Of a DNA stretch of 64,000 bases, positions 2,943-61,978 are shown one piece after another. The DNA is from a virus. Every line of letters starts with the position of its first letter. Position 1 is the stretch's first letter. Below the pieces are notes generated by a model. That model did not search any database. It worked only from the letters and a program-made list of their open reading frames with translations, and was not told the DNA's origin. The stretch covers positions 31,002-95,001 of the IMG/VR virus record IMGVR_UViG_3300035698_017588. One strand, given 5' to 3'. Position numbers and translations under genes: made by a program.

Positions 2943-3564
2943 AGCTTATGATCTTATCGATATTTTGAATGAGTAGAGGAACGTCCGAGTCCTCAATCTC
3001 TAACACATCGAGAAGTTCATTAAAAGGATCAAATGTGACAGACTCCATTTCCTGAGTAATCAGATAAATCTTGTCACCATATTCCTTATCCCCAACATAC
3101 TTAGCCCTAGGTTGGTACCTATCAAGTGTCATGCGAGAAGCACGGGCTGACCTCTCTCGAATCAATGGATTAGCCACTATTTTGGCTACAAACTCTTTTA
3201 TCTTGTCGAATGGACGGAGTTCGACCCAAAACAGTTGCACAAATCTTTCAGCTGTCTCTGGGTCAGATAAGGATTTAATCAACCTCTTAACGAAGTCTTT
3301 GAAATACCGTTTCGATTTCGAAGAATAACCAGCATTGTAGCCATTCTCATAAGCCAAAGAACAAGCTTTGAGAGTAGAAAGAGAAGCTTCGCCCCTAGTT
3401 GCTTCCGGAAGCCAATATTCAGGAGCAATTATGTTGAGTTGTTTGAATTCGGAATCGAAGATTTTAATGTCCCAGATATCGAAAATATCAAGATAATAAA
3501 CCGAGTTACCTATCTTGATAACAACCACTTTATCTTTTGAACACAGAAATTCAAACTTCGCCAT
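2926..3564 (-). CDS. Hypothetical protein
   Basis: 212-aa ORF abutting the upstream actin-like gene. Confidence 0.65.
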   Translation of the reverse strand: MAKFEFLCSKDKVVVIKIGNSVYYLDIFDIWDIKIFDSEFKQLNIIAPEYWLPEATRGEASLSTLKACSLAYENGYNAGYSSKSKRYFKDFVKRLIKSLSDPETAERFVQLFWVELRPFDKIKEFVAKIVANPLIRERSARASRMTLDRYQPRAKYVGDKEYGDKIYLITQEMESVTFDPFNELLDVLEIEDSDVPLLIQNIDKIISFRDSK

Positions 3565-4850
3565 TAGAACATTTCAGCAGCTTTCAAGCATCCTCGTGCC
3601 ACAGTGAAGAGTGGACTTTTGCAAAGGATGACTTTATTAATCTCGAATGGCACTTCGAGTTCTTTGATCAATTTGATGCATCGATCATTGAATCCGGCAG
3701 GGCTGGCGGTGCCTCCTGCCATGTAGAGGTTGACACCTTCTTCGATTCTGGCTTCATTCTCGTTCTCTTTGAATCCTTCGATGATACCGGTAAGAACATT
3801 ATTAATGAGAATATCATAATGTAACACAATATCCATGCCAAGCCGGTCATCAGGCTCTTTGCCGGGAGTGAGATTAACAGACATTTTACGTTTCGACACA
3901 GTAGTCGGAGTCTCTTTGGATTTCTTCCGGCTATCGGCATTGAATCCATGTCGTTGTGCTGTTTCATAATCAATCCAATCTCCGGAACCAACCCAGCAAA
4001 AGCTGAATATTTCTAGACCGTACTTGACATAGCTGACAGTAACGGTACCAGCACCCCAACTAATACCAATCCCCGTGCCATCGTCTGAGGAATCCAACAC
4101 AATCGCGTGTGATTCCTTGATCGTATGCCGTTCGATATTGGACTTAGTTTCATAACTATCCAAGATGACATTGACTACACGAGTATGGTAATCCAGATTG
4201 ATATCTTTATTAATCGCTTTGGCGGTCGTACAGTAACACAGCTTGACACCATCACCGAATTTGCCGATGTCGTCTTCAGCCGTCTGCAACAAGCCAGTGA
4301 CAATCGTTGAGAGGATCGTCATAGCTTCTTCGTCAGCCGCAACACCGCCCTCAGCCATGGGACGCCGAAGATAATCGTTTTTGGCATAAGCGAATTCTTC
4401 TGCGTCTTTGCCGAGAATGATTGCTTGACCGTCTAGCTCGATCCAACGTGCCGGGCGTTTGGTCCCGTCAGATCTGACCTTGTTGGGATCATCGAGCATA
4501 TTCTTCAAGAATGGAGTGACACGCTCGAAAGGCCAATAACCGTTAACCTCACTGAGGTAGCCGATTTCGCCGTTCTCTTCCTTAAAGGCAAGAACGATAT
4601 TACGGGTTCCGAGGTCGAGTCCTAAGTATTCCATTTTCATTCTCTTTGTTCTACAAATTTCGCCAAGCCGAAACACCCTTGGTTTCTTGGCAACCTTATT
4701 TACTACCGAAGCAATGCGGGTATGCCCACGAACGATATCGATCTTGGACAGTGCGGGCTTGGTAGGTTTAGGAGCAAGAGGGGTATCAGCGATGACAGGG
4801 ATTGGACGCTTTACAGTGTCCGACAATATTCTATTAGGTTCACTCGCCAC
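3564..4850 (-). CDS. Actin-like ATPase (MreB/ParM/MamK superfamily); true start may be ATG at 4640
   Basis: Phosphate-1 GLDLGTRN, RRPMAEGG, connect-1 ESHA, phosphate-2 ISWGAGT, adenosine MAGGT, connect-2 VARG. Confidence 0.85.
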   Translation of the reverse strand: MASEPNRILSDTVKRPIPVIADTPLAPKPTKPALSKIDIVRGHTRIASVVNKVAKKPRVFRLGEICRTKRMKMEYLGLDLGTRNIVLAFKEENGEIGYLSEVNGYWPFERVTPFLKNMLDDPNKVRSDGTKRPARWIELDGQAIILGKDAEEFAYAKNDYLRRPMAEGGVAADEEAMTILSTIVTGLLQTAEDDIGKFGDGVKLCYCTTAKAINKDINLDYHTRVVNVILDSYETKSNIERHTIKESHAIVLDSSDDGTGIGISWGAGTVTVSYVKYGLEIFSFCWVGSGDWIDYETAQRHGFNADSRKKSKETPTTVSKRKMSVNLTPGKEPDDRLGMDIVLHYDILINNVLTGIIEGFKENENEARIEEGVNLYMAGGTASPAGFNDRCIKLIKELEVPFEINKVILCKSPLFTVARGCLKAAEMF

Positions 4851-39876: not shown

Positions 39877-40327
39877 TCGCTATACTGGCAAAAGAGAAGC
39901 GTGCGAGCAAATCCAAGATGGCATTATTTGTGATGTATGCGGCGTCGAACTCAACTACGAGTTCGACGACGAAAACTCTCCCCATGTCTCTTTCGAAATC
40001 CACGATCTAACAGGCTGTGAACCATATTATCACGAAGATCGTCTAAAGTTCACAGCAAAAGAAGCTTTTGAACTATTCGAAATCGATTGGGATGACGATA
40101 TTGAAATGGACAATTATGTGACCTTCAATGATAACCCATTCGTTTATTGTCGATCGCGACCATGTCTTGAAGATGTCCTTAAGGACACTTTATTCGCTCA
40201 AGCACCATTCGAGGACGAAGTCTGGCTTCAAAACGCAATGATGGAAGCCAGATTAAAAATGATTGAACGTGTTTTAAGGCAGAAACTTTTTACTCCCGAG
40301 CGTTTGGGAATCAGTTTCGAAGATTAG
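39806..40327 (+). CDS. Hypothetical acidic protein
   Basis: 173-aa ORF; likely start at MKLYKS. Confidence 0.55.
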   Translation: MLQSASHWVYFGSMKLYKSTPVFDRYTGKREACEQIQDGIICDVCGVELNYEFDDENSPHVSFEIHDLTGCEPYYHEDRLKFTAKEAFELFEIDWDDDIEMDNYVTFNDNPFVYCRSRPCLEDVLKDTLFAQAPFEDEVWLQNAMMEARLKMIERVLRQKLFTPERLGISFED

Positions 40328-40396
40328 GGCCTACAGTCGGGTGACTTAACCGGTCTTCAAAACCGGAAATGGTGGATTCGAGTTCCACTAGGCCCT
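40327..40396 (+). tRNA. Atypical tRNA, anticodon UCA (opal-reading), Trp-like anticodon arm, reduced D arm
   Basis: Acceptor GGGCCTA/TAGGCCC; anticodon arm CCGGT-CTTCAAA-ACCGG; T arm GTGGA-TTCGAGT-TCCAC; D arm only AGTC-GGGT-GACT. Confidence 0.7.
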
Positions 40397-40399
40397 CTC

Positions 40400-40472
40400 G
40401 TCCCTGTAGCTCAATTGGTAGAGCGGTGGATTTCAAATCTACTGGTTGTCGGTTCAATTCCGACCAGGGACA
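40400..40472 (+). tRNA. tRNA, anticodon UCA (opal suppressor)
   Basis: Canonical cloverleaf: GTCCCTG/CAGGGAC, GCTC-AATTGGTA-GAGC, GTGGA-TTTCAAA-TCTAC, GTCGG-TTCAATT-CCGAC; short variable loop. Confidence 0.9.
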
Positions 40473-40486
40473 CTACACAAAGGAAT

Positions 40487-40768
40487 ATGATGGGAAATTC
40501 ATTAAATGCCATCTCAGCCGATGAAGACAAATACATCCACCGATGTAAGATACTCAATGTCAAACCCCAAGAAGACAAAGACCCATACTCTCTTCATGCA
40601 GAATGGGTAGACGAAACATTCTGGGCGAAAACCCAAGATTCTTGGGAAGAATATCAAAAATCTGGACAGATAAAGAAGCTGGATCGAGCTATTAAAGTAA
40701 AACAAGCGATCGTTGACCAACAACAAACAGAACTTAATGTACTGATTGAGTATCGCAAGACAATGTGA
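40487..40768 (+). CDS. Hypothetical protein
   Basis: ATG at 40487 preceded by AAGGA; the listed 40415 start lies inside the tRNA. Confidence 0.6.
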   Translation: MMGNSLNAISADEDKYIHRCKILNVKPQEDKDPYSLHAEWVDETFWAKTQDSWEEYQKSGQIKKLDRAIKVKQAIVDQQQTELNVLIEYRKTM

Positions 40769-40814
40769 TCCCAATAGCCGCAAAATTATCTTAACTAATT
40801 TGCGGGGAATCCAA

Positions 40815-41543
40815 ATGTCATACGTTCTAGAACTATCCGGCGTCGTTTCTTATGACGACAATACCGAAAAATCGTTTCTTGCAGTAGACGACATCAAAGA
40901 TGATATCGTCCTTCAAGACCAACAGGCTTTCCTTGACGTAAGCCAACGATTCCGAACCCTCATCGCGGCCAATGGCGGCGACCTACACACCCCACAAAAT
41001 CTACCACGATCTGGTAAAACCATACGGGAAACAGTGGTTAGTATAAGGTGTCTATACACCATTGGCCAAGATAACTACGAATTCACCATTACCAGTAACG
41101 ATCCAAACGGATTCATCACTACTGGTAACGGCAATTGGATGCAATTTTGGAATCTCTACGGAGAGCAAGCCAATCAACTATTCTTCGCAGCATGGGGTGG
41201 TGCTTCCGCCTACAATGTTGACTTTGCCGACAGAACATACTTTACGTTCACGAACAACTCAATGGAAGACGGACCATTAATTGTCGGTGCTTACCTCGAC
41301 AACATCGGTCCAACACTTTACCAAGAATTCCTCATCGATCCGAACAAACAAGCAGCCTTCTTGTTTGATTTTGCGTCTCAAAGTAATTTTTGGGTTCACG
41401 CTCGACGAGCTGGAGACCCGGCCCCATGGCCCGCAGCATTAAACACGCAAATCAGCATAATTGGCATTGCTGGTGCAGAACTCGACGTTACCGGCAGCTA
41501 CCAAGCATTCAACTTCGGATTGAATAGTATCGTTGCTAGTTAA
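40815..41543 (+). CDS. Hypothetical protein, tandem paralogue 1
   Basis: Begins MSYVLELSGVVSYDDNTEKSFLAVDDIKDDIVLQDQQAF. Confidence 0.75.
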   Translation: MSYVLELSGVVSYDDNTEKSFLAVDDIKDDIVLQDQQAFLDVSQRFRTLIAANGGDLHTPQNLPRSGKTIRETVVSIRCLYTIGQDNYEFTITSNDPNGFITTGNGNWMQFWNLYGEQANQLFFAAWGGASAYNVDFADRTYFTFTNNSMEDGPLIVGAYLDNIGPTLYQEFLIDPNKQAAFLFDFASQSNFWVHARRAGDPAPWPAALNTQISIIGIAGAELDVTGSYQAFNFGLNSIVAS

Positions 41544-41630
41544 CATCATACTATCTTTCGCCCAAAATCAAGTCGCAATCTTTGTCTAATCCGACAGCAA
41601 AGTTAAATCGACTAATTGCGGGGGATCACA

Positions 41631-42353
41631 ATGTCATACGTTCTTGAATTCAGTGGTGTCGTCTCTTACACCGACAACACCGAAAAATCTTTTCTAGCAG
41701 TCGATGATATCAAGGACGACATAGTCCTTCAAGACCAGCAAGCATTTGCCGATGTGGGTAGAGTGTTCAGAATCCTGGCAATTGAAGCGGGCGGAGAGCT
41801 TGCACTCCCTCGCACCATCCCACAATCTGGAAAGACGGTCAAGAATACCAACGCCAAAATCAACTGTTGGTATACTATTGGAGAAGAAAGCTTCGAATTC
41901 TCCATAATAGAGTCGGACACTACTGGCCTGACTACCATTGGTGACGGAAACATCGCACAATTCATGAGTAATTATGGAAATGGGGCGAACAGCTTCGTCA
42001 ACAGAATCTACAAAGGTGCCACATTATATGGCACAAAATTCACAAATCCAGCTCTTGTGTTCATCAGAAATGACGTTTTTGCTCCCGCCCAACATATAGT
42101 TGGATTTTATTCCCAAGTCAACCCGACTTTGGAATTCATGTTGGAAAAGATTATCGACCCAAGCAACGAAGCCGCGATAATTATTAACAGAGATGGGCTA
42201 GTAGCTCCTTTTGTTCATGCGAGAATTGTTGGAAACCCACCCCCACAGCCAATCGACATCAACACCCAAGTCAATTTCACTAGTATAGCACAAGTGGATT
42301 TGACGATCAATTCGGTCCAGAATTTTAGTCTGACCAACGGGGTGCTTGCATAA
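41631..42353 (+). CDS. Hypothetical protein, tandem paralogue 2
   Basis: Begins MSYVLEFSGVVSYTDNTEKSFLAVDDIKDDIVLQDQQAF. Confidence 0.75.
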   Translation: MSYVLEFSGVVSYTDNTEKSFLAVDDIKDDIVLQDQQAFADVGRVFRILAIEAGGELALPRTIPQSGKTVKNTNAKINCWYTIGEESFEFSIIESDTTGLTTIGDGNIAQFMSNYGNGANSFVNRIYKGATLYGTKFTNPALVFIRNDVFAPAQHIVGFYSQVNPTLEFMLEKIIDPSNEAAIIINRDGLVAPFVHARIVGNPPPQPIDINTQVNFTSIAQVDLTINSVQNFSLTNGVLA

Positions 42354-42414: not shown

Positions 42415-42726
42415 ATGTTGTGAGCATATTGCTACGTAATAGTCACCTCGGATCTAACTGATCCACAAAAGGCAGTGCAAGGAATGCACGCGGCCATTGA
42501 ATCGGCCAGATCAGGATTGATCACAGGACCACACCCTAATTTGGTGTTTTGTATGGTCCCCGACTCTGAATCTCTAAGTCAGCTGTCGAAAAAACTCAAA
42601 ATCCGTGAAGTCGATCATCGTATATTCGTAGAACCGGATCTCGACGACAAGCCTACTGCTATAGCCACACGAACCGTAAGTGGCAAAGAGCGTAAACTAT
42701 TCTCAAATTTCCCGTTGGTGAGATAA
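42415..42726 (+). CDS. Peptidyl-tRNA hydrolase (PTH2/PTRHD1-like) with in-frame TGA at codon 3
   Basis: ATG TTG TGA then AYCYVIVTSDLTDPQKAVQGMHAAIES..LVFCMV..IFVEPDL..TAIAT..FSNFPL; the YVIV..DL strand lies upstream of the listed GTG start. Confidence 0.75.
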
Positions 42727-42728
42727 TT

Positions 42729-43028
42729 ATGTCAGCACGAGAACCCAGAGACGTAAAAGAATTTCGAACCGAAGCCGAATTAGAAGAAGCTGCGAGCGGG
42801 AATGACGTCCGAAAACTCGATTGGGAAGGAGAAGGATATTATGCCATCTACCAATATGGTCAACGATGTCCACGAGGATGCTGCTATGATAGCGTCTACG
42901 AGGCCAGACCAATAGCCGACCATATTTCCGATCTGGAAGCACATATCGAAGATCTTTCTTCCGACCTAAGTCATTACAAAGATCTCAACCACAAATACGA
43001 CCTACTAGCCAAGTACACAAAGGAATAA
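42729..43028 (+). CDS. Hypothetical protein
   Basis: 99-aa ORF between the two ATG-TTG-TGA genes. Confidence 0.6.
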   Translation: MSAREPRDVKEFRTEAELEEAASGNDVRKLDWEGEGYYAIYQYGQRCPRGCCYDSVYEARPIADHISDLEAHIEDLSSDLSHYKDLNHKYDLLAKYTKE

Positions 43029-43030
43029 TC

Positions 43031-43564
43031 ATGTTGTGATTACCGCGAGCCCCGCCCTGGAAACCGATTCTCCGACAATTTTTACGATTAATCAATTTTC
43101 AAGGCACAGACATTATGACTACTCAAACAATTGAAACCCACACTTCAAAATGGGGTTTCCACCCCTGCACACGCGAAACTTGCCAAAAACTCAAGGAAGC
43201 TCATCTCTTGTTGCTCCGTGCTTTACGAGACATCAAAAGACACCAACGATGGAGCAACAAACTTGAGCCCGAAGGAGAAGAACCAAAGCACCCTTCTTTC
43301 CTGGTAAAAGACGGGCGTTTCTATCGCAGTGAAAAAGCAAAAGAAGCAAAGAACATGACTTATGGTATTACGCTTGGGACAAGCTATTGGCCCGTAGGAT
43401 TTAGATGTGAAATCCACTACTACGAACACATTCTATCCCAATACCGAAATGCCAGGAGGCCACAGGCCACAGAAGAAGAGGTAGAGCCTCTTAATTTACC
43501 AGATGACTTATGGCTTATCATCGAAAAGCTCAAAGGCTTTTATAAAATCAGCCCTGCATCCTAG
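43031..43564 (+). CDS. Hypothetical protein (ATG 43115) with in-frame leader M-L-opal-LPRAPPW
   Basis: AAGGAATAATC ATG TTG TGA TTA CCG CGA GCC CCG CCC TGG..., open and in frame (84 nt) with the 149-aa ORF. Confidence 0.65.
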
Positions 43565-58893: not shown

Positions 58894-59204
58894 CTCTCTA
58901 CTTGCGGCTTTTCGCAAGCCAGCGGAGCCACGCTAAGTGCCACCGCAATTCACGTTCTTCCACCCGCGTGACCGCATTGTCTTCGCAAAATTCTCTGATC
59001 GTCATTACGGCCTCAACGGTGTCCACCACCCCTGCGAATCTCCGTATTGTGCCATCCACGCTGTCACGTTGACCAACACGACCCCAAATAGCCACGCACT
59101 ACCGCCGACGCAAAACACATTCCATCCAATGAGTACGCCCGTTTTTGCGATGGTTCTCCACGGCCAATCTTCGATCGGTGTCCCCCTTGGCGGATCGTAC
59201 GGAT

Positions 59205-59429
59205 TCATTGCTCGTCTTCCCTTGCTGCTCGCTTGTATTCTGCGTTGCATGGCTGGCAATACTCGGCGTCTTCGATTCCGTGTTCGCACACTTCCTCTGG
59301 ATTGTCCTGCATCCACAATTCAAGCTCAACAATTGAATCGCTGATTGATTCGGCCTTGTGCGTGTGTGGTCGCCATTCTTGTCGACTGTTGGCTTCGTCG
59401 TCAAATACTACTAAAACTGGCTTGCTCAT
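59205..59429 (-). CDS. Small hypothetical cassette protein
   Basis: MSKPVLVVFDD..CEHG..YCQPC; followed by further small overlapping minus-strand ORFs down to 58898. Confidence 0.55.
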   Translation of the reverse strand: MSKPVLVVFDDEANSRQEWRPHTHKAESISDSIVELELWMQDNPEEVCEHGIEDAEYCQPCNAEYKRAAREDEQ

Positions 59430-59441
59430 TGGTTTCTCGCG

Positions 59442-59461
59442 GCTGAACAAAAAATTGGTGA
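59442..59461 (+). repeat. Left half of an attC-like site, cut by the IS right end
   Basis: gctgAAC-aaaaa-ATTG resembles the start of the 62428 site (tgcgAAC-aaaaa-ATTG); no right arm found. Confidence 0.5.
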
Positions 59462-59670
59462 GTAAACATCCCCACGGATAAATCCGGGGGCTTTTGTGAA
59501 TAACCTCAAGCACAATTCCCAAAGGCAGTGCCGTCAACGATTCGTCGTGCGATTTGGTGGTTGTTAGTTCTCCTGTAATTGGCCTCATCTTTGGACAGGG
59601 ATTTAAGCCGACGCTTTGCCGACTTTGTTCCGACAGATTGAAGAATGTCCCGGCGAGCCTGAAACCAAAC

Positions 59671-60183
59671 TCATTTGGCCTTAAGCTCGTCGGCGGGAAA
59701 AGCATTGCCGTCGGAATCGACGGCAATCTTAGCTACGCCGAAATCGACGCTGAGTACGCTACTGGAAACATCCTTCGGGACGTCATCGAGCTTGATCGAA
59801 ACAAGCAAGTAGAAAACGCCTTTTACGTAAACCAAGTCAGCCTGGTCGCCTTTAATTGCTTCCTGCAACCGAGACTCTTGATAGCCAGCGATCACCATTG
59901 GAATTACAAGTCGGCCGTCAAGCGACCCAAGGCTAACATGCGTCAGCCCCTTGAATCGCATAATCCGTTCGTCATAGACAATGGTAGATTGCTCGCGAAG
60001 ATCGCGGTAGCAAAGGCGGTGGATGCTGGGCTGCGAAAACACCTTGGCATCAAAGCCGACCTTGGCATCAAAGCCGACCTTGGCGGCGTGACTAGCCGAC
60101 AGATAGAACGCCTTGAAAGTACGCAACAATGCGTCTTTCTGGGTGGCGTCAGGAAGCAATTTGATTTTGACGGTGAGTTGCAT
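59671..60183 (-). pseudogene. tnpB: Truncated TnpB
   Basis: MQLTVKIKLLP..QKDALLRT, GDQADLVY..FYL, RuvC-I VLSVDFGV..IAVDSDG; RuvC-II, zinc finger and RuvC-III are missing. Confidence 0.8.
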
Positions 60184-60189
60184 ACGAGA

Positions 60190-60217
60190 ACTATAGCCAG
60201 ATACGTTCATAAGTCAA
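60190..60217 (-). promoter_or_regulatory. Putative sigma-70 promoter for a leaderless tnpB transcript
   Basis: TTGACT-16 nt-TATAGT, with 6 nt between the -10 box and the ATG. Confidence 0.5.
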
Positions 60218-60316
60218 GCAGGTTGTTTATTTCTTCGGGATAGCGAGGTTTTCGATGACCGCCGGGAGAATCAATCGACTTTTAGGATCAATGTTGGCGT
60301 CATCTGGTTACACGAG

Positions 60317-60409
60317 TTGGAACAAGCGGATGCACCGATCCGCGTTAAAATTGGTTTGGTTTGAAAGTTTGAGTCTACCGTGGCAACCCGGTAAACATTA
60401 GCGTTAGGT
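60317..60409 (+). repeat. attC-like site 2 (arms pair poorly, probably chimeric)
   Basis: ttggAAC-aagcg-GATGCACC..GGTAAAC-attagc-GTTaggt. Confidence 0.7.
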
Positions 60410-60895
60410 GGACGACGGCTGCACGATACAATCGTCGCAACGTTCAAACGCCGATTCGGTTGTGCCATCGCAATCGGGGCAAACCCACTTGCCGCTTGCG
60501 GCGTCGTTGGCTTGCTCACACAATCGGCGGCACTCGCTTTCGACATACGACTGCGACCGCACCACACCATCGACGAAATCCGTCGAAGTCCATCCGCGAT
60601 TGTTCGGCAGGTCTGGGTCTCTCGCATCCCAAGCGTGAGCGCAATCAAATCCGACCCACCACGCATCGTCGTCGCCCTTGCCGCAATCCGTATCCGGCTG
60701 TGAAAACGTGCAACCGCCGTGAACGTCCACGGGTTGCTCCATCGTTTCCACGCCGTGCCACGGGTGACCCTTCGGAACGCGGACGTATCCGCACCGATAG
60801 CCGCCGTCGTTGTGGACAACCTGCCACTCGAAACCTAAATGCTCACCCTTTGCCAAGACGCAATCTGGGCGGGAAATCGCAACGCTTAAACACAT
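60404..60895 (-). CDS. Cassette gene: conserved phage hypothetical protein
   Basis: CGYVRVPKGHPWHG..VHGG.TF..WWVGFDCAH; stop codon inside the R' box; AGGAG RBS inside the next R'' box. Confidence 0.8.
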   Translation of the reverse strand: MCLSVAISRPDCVLAKGEHLGFEWQVVHNDGGYRCGYVRVPKGHPWHGVETMEQPVDVHGGCTFSQPDTDCGKGDDDAWWVGFDCAHAWDARDPDLPNNRGWTSTDFVDGVVRSQSYVESECRRLCEQANDAASGKWVCPDCDGTTESAFERCDDCIVQPSST

Positions 60896-60902
60896 GTCGC
60901 AC

Positions 60903-60991
60903 TCCTAACAATTGATTGCACCGATTGCCGTCGATGCGTGTTTGAAATGGTTAATTTCACCGTCGGCAATCGGTGAATCAATGCGTTACGA
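60903..60991 (+). repeat. attC-like site 3
   Basis: tcctAAC-aattg-ATTGCACCgattgccg..cggcaatcGGTGAAT-caatgc-GTTacga. Confidence 0.9.
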
Positions 60992-61291
60992 CGACGACTT
61001 CCGCTCGAAGTGCATCGTCATTTGATCGTCGCTGAATCCTGTCGGTGTGATGTCGCTATCGGGATTGCACGTATGCCAAGCGAACAGCAAATCTTTCGCT
61101 GCTGCAATGTGGACGAACTTTTTCGTGAACCACTGAAAGTCGTCAAACCACTGCCGGGGTGATCGATCTTTCTCTGGGCCGTTCCAAAACAGCCCGTAGT
61201 AAACTTCGCGGAACAACACGTCACCGCCAATTTCTTGGTGCAATGCGGACAGCACCGCTTCCACCACTTCTGTTCTGCTTTTCGTAATCAT
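60986..61291 (-). CDS. Cassette gene: hypothetical protein
   Basis: ATG 61291 with AGGAG RBS; TAA inside the R' box. Confidence 0.65.
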   Translation of the reverse strand: MITKSRTEVVEAVLSALHQEIGGDVLFREVYYGLFWNGPEKDRSPRQWFDDFQWFTKKFVHIAAAKDLLFAWHTCNPDSDITPTGFSDDQMTMHFERKSSS

Positions 61292-61314
61292 GTCATCTCC
61301 TGGATAGGTCGCGA

Positions 61315-61404
61315 TCGTAACAATGGGTTGCACCATGTCGGGCTTGCACGTCTTTTCGCAATGGAGAGTCAACCGTCCCGACACGGTGAACCCAAGCGTT
61401 CGTC
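61315..61404 (+). repeat. attC-like site 4
   Basis: tcgtAAC-aatgg-GTTGCACC..tgtcggg..cccgaca..GGTGAAC-ccaagc-GTTcgtc. Confidence 0.9.
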
Positions 61405-61978
61405 ATACCGAGCTTGCGGCTGCCAACTCGATGTCAACCGTTTCGTTGTCGTATGGATTGTGACCTATCCACCTGATGTTTTTGAGACAATACGTTTTGC
61501 AAAGATACTCGGTAATTCGCTGCATGATCTCCGCCGTTGGCGGCCTCCACGCCGTTTGAAACTCAATCAAAATCGGCGAACCGTCGCCCCCAAGTTCGTG
61601 GACTTTCAATCCGTAGGTGCCCCATTTGGTACCCCACTCTTTCGTTTGCCAGTCAAACCAATCGGCTGCGCCGTGCTTGGAAAACAGATCGGTAATTTCA
61701 TCTTCGGTCAAAGCAACTCGCTCCCACTGGTCGCGTTCATCGTGCTTGGGTCCGTTGCAATCTTTCGACACTTCGCCGCTAGTCTTGTGGACATAGCGGC
61801 ATTTCGGATTTGACGCGACAATGCCAGCTAGCTCATCTGGCAACTTTGACATCAACTCGCAAAGGTTTGCACCCTTCAGCGACTCGAAATCAATCTCGTC
61901 GTAATCCTCTTTGCCGATGGCTTCGAGTGCGAGCCAGTCTCTAGCACAAAGCCCAATGGTCAGGAAATTGTTTGGCAT
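61403..61978 (-). CDS. Cassette gene: DUF1281/YubB-like ferredoxin-fold protein
   Basis: MPN start, DWFDWQTKEWGTKW, FQTAWRPP. Confidence 0.78.
   Translation of the reverse strand: MPNNFLTIGLCARDWLALEAIGKEDYDEIDFESLKGANLCELMSKLPDELAGIVASNPKCRYVHKTSGEVSKDCNGPKHDERDQWERVALTEDEITDLFSKHGAADWFDWQTKEWGTKWGTYGLKVHELGGDGSPILIEFQTAWRPPTAEIMQRITEYLCKTYCLKNIRWIGHNPYDNETVDIELAAASSV

Follow-up and report, generated by a model that had tools for sequence, protein, structure and literature searches.

How can a phage gene be expressed when the third codon of its reading frame is a stop codon, and how is it related to two tRNAs of matching anticodon that are encoded upstream of it? This question is raised by a locus in the 64,000-nt stretch of viral DNA analyzed here (the window), which is contained in a contig of 95,001 nt. 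The features of the locus are as follows.

40327..40397 (+): tRNA(UCA) no. 1, 71 nt, with a reduced D arm (ARAGORN)
40400..40473 (+): tRNA(UCA) no. 2, a canonical 74-nt opal suppressor (ARAGORN; Rfam RF00005, 72.4 bits)
42415..42423 (+): leader ATG TTG TGA (Met-Leu-opal), the proposed gate, read from the sequence and of a design shared with homologues
42424..42726 (+): body of the PTH2-like ORF, 100 codons plus TAA, in frame with the leader and assigned by fold and profile
42729..43028 (+): 99-aa ORF from the ORF list, between the two leaders
43031..43060 (+): second leader ATG TTG TGA, recognized as a repeated 12-mer, reading M-L-opal-L-P-R-A-P-P-W with an arrest-like RAPP motif
43115..43564 (+): 149-aa conserved partner gene with its own ATG, its homologues starting at the same Met

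In the first leader, ATG (42415-42417) and TTG (42418-42420) are followed by TGA as codon 3 (42421-42423). The sequence then continues with GCA TAT TGC TAC GTA ATA GTC, and the frame is open up to the TAA at 42724-42726. A preliminary description of this DNA had claimed that ATG TTG TGA runs into a peptidyl-tRNA hydrolase (PTH) domain without a standard start before its first strand. When the frame was scanned, no ATG, GTG or TTG was indeed found between the leader TGA and the first beta-strand of the PTH2-like ORF. The earliest standard starts 3' of the TGA are GTG 42475 (codon 21) and then ATG 42484, and for this reason gene callers report just products of 80-83 aa. The SD sequence before the leader ATG is weak (GGAA).

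The two UCA tRNAs that had been placed about 2 kb upstream were found 1.9 kb upstream, on the same strand as the gated gene and not adjacent to it. They are the sole tRNAs of the contig. tRNA(UCA) no. 1 adopts a cloverleaf fold (-28 kcal/mol), and no. 2 shares 81 % identity with the UCA tRNA of a related locus (L090), which lies 278 nt upstream of a TGA-leader gene there. The 1.9 kb from the tRNAs to the gated gene is filled by two paralogous ORFs, 40746-41543 (MSYVLELSG...) and 41616-42353 (MSYVLEFSG...).

We propose that the locus encodes a miniature protein of the PTH2 fold which is made through readthrough of UGA codon 3 by tRNA(UCA). The probability of this reading is put at roughly 80 %, and we infer readthrough in vivo from the comparison of sequences. 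Translation would begin at ATG 42415 and reach the UGA as the third codon. If no suppressor is present, Met-Leu would be released and no PTH2-like protein would be made, and with the phage tRNA(UCA), the UGA would be decoded and the full 103-residue protein would be produced. Because the stop sits in a non-conserved leader, any inserted residue should be tolerated and a failed attempt would cost one dipeptide. The output of the gene would be a readout of the phage suppressor tRNA being expressed, charged and active. The purpose may be to couple the amount of a putative tRNA-end hydrolase to suppressor activity, and such a coupling could allow the suppressor tRNA to be recycled or kept limited, or could hold expression back until a suppressor has appeared.

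When 151 loci from IMG/VR, JGI/ENA metagenomes, GTDB genomes and GenBank phages were compared, they formed 118 clusters at 90 % identity. A stop, not a sense codon, was found at the leader position in about 67 of the 118 clusters (57 stand-alone genes and ~10 HD-fusions). The 57 stand-alone clusters share one design, namely ATG, one to eight sense codons, an in-frame stop and then the first strand, and no canonical start was observed between the stop and the strand in any of them. Among 69 leader-stop clusters, the stop is at codon 3 in 30, at codon 4 in 11 and at codon 5 in 13, and an SD-like motif precedes the leader ATG in 47. All three stop types are found as leader stops (for example ATG ACT TAC TGA in L029, ATG AGG TAG in L032 and ATG CAT TAA in L039/L068), and nine internal stops were counted in 7418 codons of the gene bodies. 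The first tree contains a well-supported clade with the window in which 20 of 21 rows have a leader stop. The early stop and the upstream strand are both conserved among sequences down to ~30 % identity. In a second branch of the family, the genes start with an ordinary ATG and are directly followed by a tRNA(CUA). One protein-only homologue (P0005) reads M-L-W at the stop position, its W representing either TGG or a code-4 gene call.

Several minor observations were made on these loci. Besides the leader TAG, a further in-frame TAG is found near codon 33, in the loop past helix 1, of L001/L081, L082, L086, L087, L101, L113-L119, L128 and L153. Odd tRNAs adjoin some family members, including tandem tRNA-Phe(AAA), tRNA-Ile(AAU) and tRNAs with 8-nt anticodon loops (ccta, tcta, gtta, ttcg), in L004-L008, L013-L014, L012, L021, L003, L009, L027 and L037; the PTH2-like family may be a companion of non-standard decoders in general. 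In the tRNA-rich regions of L016, L017, L019 and L020, tmRNA genes are found a few kb from the PTH2-like/suppressor tRNA cassette. Leader-TAG cassettes with tRNA(CUA) also occur on planctomycete-binned contigs (L065, a 1.68-Mb contig of a Planctomycetota MAG, and L066 and L069, Planctomycetia, Frigoriglobus), which suggests a prophage or chromosomal copy and would be in line with a window phage that infects planctomycetes.

The type of the leader stop was compared with the anticodon of suppressor tRNAs in the fetched flanks (3-6 kb). In all 37 informative clusters, i.e. those with a suppressor tRNA in the flank, the stop matches the anticodon (TAG/CUA 33, TGA/UCA 4; mismatches 0; Fisher's exact p 1.5e-5). 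In the TAG/CUA clusters the tRNA is often 30-400 nt from the gene. The TGA/UCA clusters are the window, L028 (tRNA at ~60 nt), L090 (278 nt) and L076, where two UCA tRNAs lie 2.5 kb upstream in a window-like arrangement. No suppressor tRNA was found within the fetched 3-6 kb in 19 leader-stop clusters. TGA leaders are scattered among TAG leaders in the 118-row tree, which is poorly resolved, and this distribution suggests that the stop type was switched more than once in the family.

In 63 of 67 clusters the leader stop is followed by a purine, and in none of the 67 by T (p 9e-12 versus first codon positions of the same genes). At the real terminal stops of these genes, T was the next base in 11 of 63. 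Genes with a TAG leader terminate with TGA (28), TAA (26) or rarely TAG (3), and genes with a TGA leader never terminate with TGA. Both the purine context and the avoidance of the suppressible codon at the terminus agree with a leader stop whose suppression is intended.

The design is also carried by cultured phages. Fusions of an HD-like phosphohydrolase with a PTH2-like domain, each with an in-frame ATG-(1-4 codons)-TAG, were found in L061-L063, L002, L034, L075 and L085, of which L061 is phage XacN1 (AP018399.1, 243741-244595). The HD-PTH2 fusion is present in XacN1, Xoo-sp13, RAS14 and CM1, and a TAG leader is present in XacN1, Xoo-sp13 and RAS14, the three whose leaders were read. The C-terminal domains of XacN1 and Xoo-sp13 score 25.3 and 29.5 bits with Pfam PTH2, above the 23-bit cut-off. 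XacN1 ORF364 is preceded by an in-frame ATG AAG TAG and has an ATG 5 codons past the TAG, so that fusions of the XacN1 type could start without readthrough. In the case of RAS14, no canonical start follows the TAG before a GTG inside the conserved N-terminus, and the annotated GTG start of this gene is probably wrong because it cuts that N-terminus. XacN1 has two tRNA(CUA) for which its authors were unable to find targets, their search having covered readthrough of annotated 3' stops only (PMC5852040). With XacN1, Xoo-sp13, RAS14 and CM1 in culture, direct experiments can be performed. Taken together, the match of stop and anticodon, the purine context, the terminal avoidance and the leaders of the cultured phages strongly support suppressor-dependent synthesis, and the claim that full-length PTH needs readthrough of UGA by a suppressor tRNA has thereby gained strong comparative support. 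Three other parts of the preliminary description, namely limiting RF2 as the trigger, a sensor of termination status as the purpose, and a link to drop-off at lambda bar minigenes, drew no support from the present analyses.

What, then, is the protein behind the stop? When the window sequence was searched by itself, Pfam PTH2 (PF01981) was matched with an E-value of 0.18 and 12.5 bits, below the 23-bit cut-off, and PHROG 3668 ('hydrolase') with 4e-5. A profile of 44 family sequences matched the PTH2 chains of the PDB with an E-value of 1e-6. The AlphaFold2 model of the readthrough product, built with the family alignment, has a pLDDT of 95.6, and its best 14 Foldseek matches in the PDB all belong to the PTH2 family (TM 0.64-0.78; E-values 7e-6 to 5e-4). 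The chains matched are 3erj, 2zv3, 1wn2, 1q7s, 1xty, 2gax and 1rlk, and the proteins include AF2095, MJ0051, PH1539, Bit1 and S. solfataricus Pth2. The original assignment as PTH is thus upheld by the fold and the family profile, and not by the single-sequence Pfam score.

In the model, strand 1 (residues 5-11) begins directly past the stop and helix 1 comprises residues 16-32; short forms started at the GTG or ATG would, according to the model, be without the core strand 1 and part of helix 1. His25, Glu73 and Thr81 are invariant in the family, and D13, L14, Q22, P74 and D75 are nearly invariant. The fold and the motifs R-x-D-L...Q..H-A and T-A-I-A are shared with archaeal and eukaryotic PTH2 (PF01981; 1xty, 2zv3, 1q7s). 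However, the phage family is ~15 residues shorter, shows an invariant E-P-D where the archaeal and eukaryotic proteins have D-A-G, and has Q-Q/K in place of the Gly-Lys loop. At the position of this loop a Q or K is found and the segment is two residues shorter, as judged by alignment. Mutagenesis of S. solfataricus Pth2 reportedly identified a Lys and an Asp as catalytic, and this Lys appears not to be conserved in the phage family. We use the name 'PTH2-like' because the fold and profile match PTH2 while the Gly-Lys loop is replaced and the single-sequence Pfam score is sub-threshold. The fold points to a putative hydrolase activity, and the 3' end of tRNA is the probable site of action of the modeled protein.

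The leader of the gated gene has a counterpart nearby. The 12-mer ATCATGTTGTGA is present in two copies in the 95-kb contig, which open the two leaders, and about 0.01 further copy would be expected. In the TGA relative L029, ML-opal-LPRGPP is found immediately 3' of the PTH2-like gene. A stop followed by R-[AG]-P-P within 21 codons was detected on the gene strand of 21 of the 151 loci and on the opposite strand of 0 of 151, and such stop-gated leaders are mostly 350-460 nt 5' of the PTH2-like gene. With LPRAPPW after its stop, the leader at 43031 resembles RAPP/RGPP arrest leader peptides (ApdA, ApdP, SecM type), from which the window leader differs in that its candidate motif is reached only after stop readthrough. 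A weak hairpin near the second leader (CCUGGAAA with UUUUCAAGG) overlaps the AAGG before ATG 43115, with a fold z-score of -0.1, and the RNA folds around both leaders were no better than those of shuffled sequences.

A tblastn search of the fetched loci recovered homologues of the 149-aa protein. At least 20 leader-stop loci (the window, L028, L029, L032, L074, L076, L086 and others) have one downstream of the PTH2-like gene, as its direct neighbour in about half of the cases, and the family shares the motifs W-G-x-H-P-C, K-L-K-E-x-H and Q-Y-R-x-x-R-x-P. The protein model has a pLDDT of 92. No Pfam, PHROG or Foldseek match to the 149-aa protein was obtained (best VIA Z just 4.5), and a viral scan with it gave zero matches. 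For the 99-aa ORF between the leaders, no homologue was found among the fetched loci.

It is conceivable, if rather doubtful, that the suppressor tRNA, the leader-stop PTH2-like gene and the 149-aa partner form a self-contained feedback module in which the hydrolase acts on the suppressor tRNA. The hydrolase would then recycle peptidyl-suppressor-tRNA that has dropped off, or deacylate the suppressor tRNA, and its readthrough-dependent synthesis would set or sharpen stop suppression in a standard-code host. If this is true, RF2 autoregulation would have a counterpart based on a tRNA, and a change of the genetic code might begin with such a module, which would be present in more than 60 phage lineages, the cultured XacN1 among them. 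The RF2 gene (prfB) has an early in-frame UGA that is bypassed by a +1 frameshift and by which release factor is sensed. The gated gene resembles prfB in that an early in-frame stop lies in a termination- or translation-related gene and must be bypassed to obtain the product, whose synthesis would thus tell how the stop is handled. Here, however, the frame is unchanged and the component sensed would be the suppressor tRNA.

Alternatively, ATG-X-stop could be a free-standing minigene that loads or stalls ribosomes, with the PTH2-like ORF translated by reinitiation or non-canonical initiation and no suppressor tRNA involved. The bar minigenes of phage lambda consist of SD-AUG-AUA-stop and cause drop-off of peptidyl-tRNA, and Pth clears the drop-off products. 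An SD, ATG, one sense codon and a stop are likewise found in the three-codon leaders, which are the commonest ones (30/69 clusters). ATG TTG TGA is moreover repeated before another gene that has its own ATG, and XacN1-type fusions have the ATG 5 codons past the stop. Unlike the window leader, however, the bar minigenes are free-standing, without an in-frame fusion to a downstream domain. From the stop to strand 1, the window and most stand-alone clusters have no ATG, GTG or TTG at which such initiation could take place, and a minigene does not predict the 37/37 anticodon match, the purine context or the avoidance of the leader codon as terminal stop. We therefore consider a minigene improbable and retain readthrough by the suppressor tRNA as the preferred explanation.

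The TGA might also be a case of ordinary recoding, in a phage of a stop-recoded lineage that uses TGA as a sense codon in late genes, and not a dedicated gate. Ivanova et al. (2014) are said to have described stop-codon recoding in phages. Recoding with suppressor tRNAs is by now well documented, and in-frame stops are proposed to become readable by a suppressor tRNA of the phage itself (Borges et al., bioRxiv 10.1101/2021.08.26.457843). Consistent with this, some relatives contain one more in-frame TAG, near codon 33 or at another position, and the analysis covers 95 kb of a genome that is possibly larger.

When the code of the contig was analyzed, TGA was found to end 41 of 102 ORFs (TAA 42, TAG 19). 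The coding density was 0.89 with the standard code (greedy ORFs) and 0.88 with TGA as sense, and an ORF of 2368 aa contains zero in-frame TGA. Because the standard code reads well, TGA is a working terminator in the contig and the in-frame TGA of the leader is an exception. Apart from the second identical leader, no other ORF of the 95-kb contig requires TGA readthrough. In the family, stops are clustered within the initial 3-10 codons (~67 in leaders, compared with 9 in 7418 body codons), and in the genes flanking the TAG-leader loci no excess of interior TAG was seen, although this test is noisy and weakly informative. Genome-wide recoding of TGA was rejected for the 95 kb at hand (of a genome that may be larger) on the basis of the unchanged density and the frequent use of TGA as terminator, and ordinary recoding is accordingly judged quite improbable. 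Two long ORFs that appear under code 4 were also rejected. That at 59005-60819 (-) is a degenerate TnpB/OrfB_IS605-like relic with seven TGA and probable frame changes, and that at 60986-61978 is in fact two separate genes.

Backup stops downstream of TGA-terminated genes in the contig are no nearer than those of other genes, which would be unexpected under strong suppression. The base after the true TGA terminators of the contig is T in 20 of 41; it is G at the gated leader and T at the second leader (TGA 43037).

The gate proposed here shares a feature with the recoded phages (codes 4 and 15), for which expression of stop-bearing genes only after appearance of the suppressor tRNA has been proposed as well. 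By analogy, it may be placed conceptually with the suppressor-tRNA-based gating of those phages. In recoded phages, stops are spread through 26-71 % of the genes and the recoded codon has become scarce among terminators, whereas the window genome keeps TGA as a common terminator, and here one stop is found in the non-conserved leader of one tRNA-linked gene family. Of the features of code 4-like phages, a phage-encoded suppressor tRNA was found in the contig, and many in-frame stops and a rise in density were not. The preprint of Borges et al. (bioRxiv 10.1101/2021.08.26.457843) makes no mention of a hydrolase.

A decaying pseudogene, a sequencing error, or expression as a short GTG- or ATG-started form would be suggested by the 80-83-aa forms that gene callers picked. 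To evaluate this, the closest relative with DNA (L028, 72 % identity) is informative, as it has ATG TGT TGA at the same position; the TGA is retained and the codons on both sides of it are changed. The shortened 80-aa gene call of exactly the window sequence is on record for 5 contigs. Since the TGA is kept amid changed flanks and the call is shared by 5 contigs, the leader TGA is not a sequencing error. In the segment 5' of the GTG, the window and L028 differ by 6 synonymous and 6 non-synonymous codons, and in the remainder of the gene by 30 synonymous and 21 non-synonymous codons; the mix before the GTG is much like that of the remainder of the gene. As described above, the stop and the strand upstream are conserved down to ~30 % identity, and the objection that the GTG-started form would suffice is countered by the model (pLDDT 95.6), in which that form would be without strand 1 and part of helix 1. 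A decayed, erroneous or shortened gene is thus very improbable.

That the leader UGA encodes selenocysteine is extremely improbable: ARAGORN calls both tRNAs 'SeC' and the top Rfam match of tRNA no. 1 is the tRNA-Sec model, but the label derives from the anticodon alone, the match (41.4 bits) is under the 47-bit cut-off, both tRNAs are short (71 and 74 nt) and without a long variable arm, the corresponding codon of relatives is TAG or TAA, accompanied by CUA tRNAs, and no significant RNA structure was found 3' of the UGA. tRNA no. 1 was rejected as a Sec tRNA as it is too short and its Rfam score is below the cut-off.

In full-text literature searches, no description was found of a PTH2-like gene, or of any other, that is gated by a leader stop corresponding to a suppressor tRNA of the phage. 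Many standard-code phages have suppressor tRNAs without a known target, and the leader stop of a tRNA-linked hydrolase-like gene would be a concrete and conserved target for such tRNAs. Should it work as proposed, the gate would act as a one-codon switch of natural origin by which suppressor activity is reported. It would also represent a minimal stage, open to testing, on the evolutionary path to stop-codon reassignment, and could be a ready part for synthetic biology built on orthogonal suppressors.

Elsewhere in the window, the ORF 3564-4850 (-) showed a strong match to the actin-like Pfam family Volactin (PF25216; E-value 3e-37).
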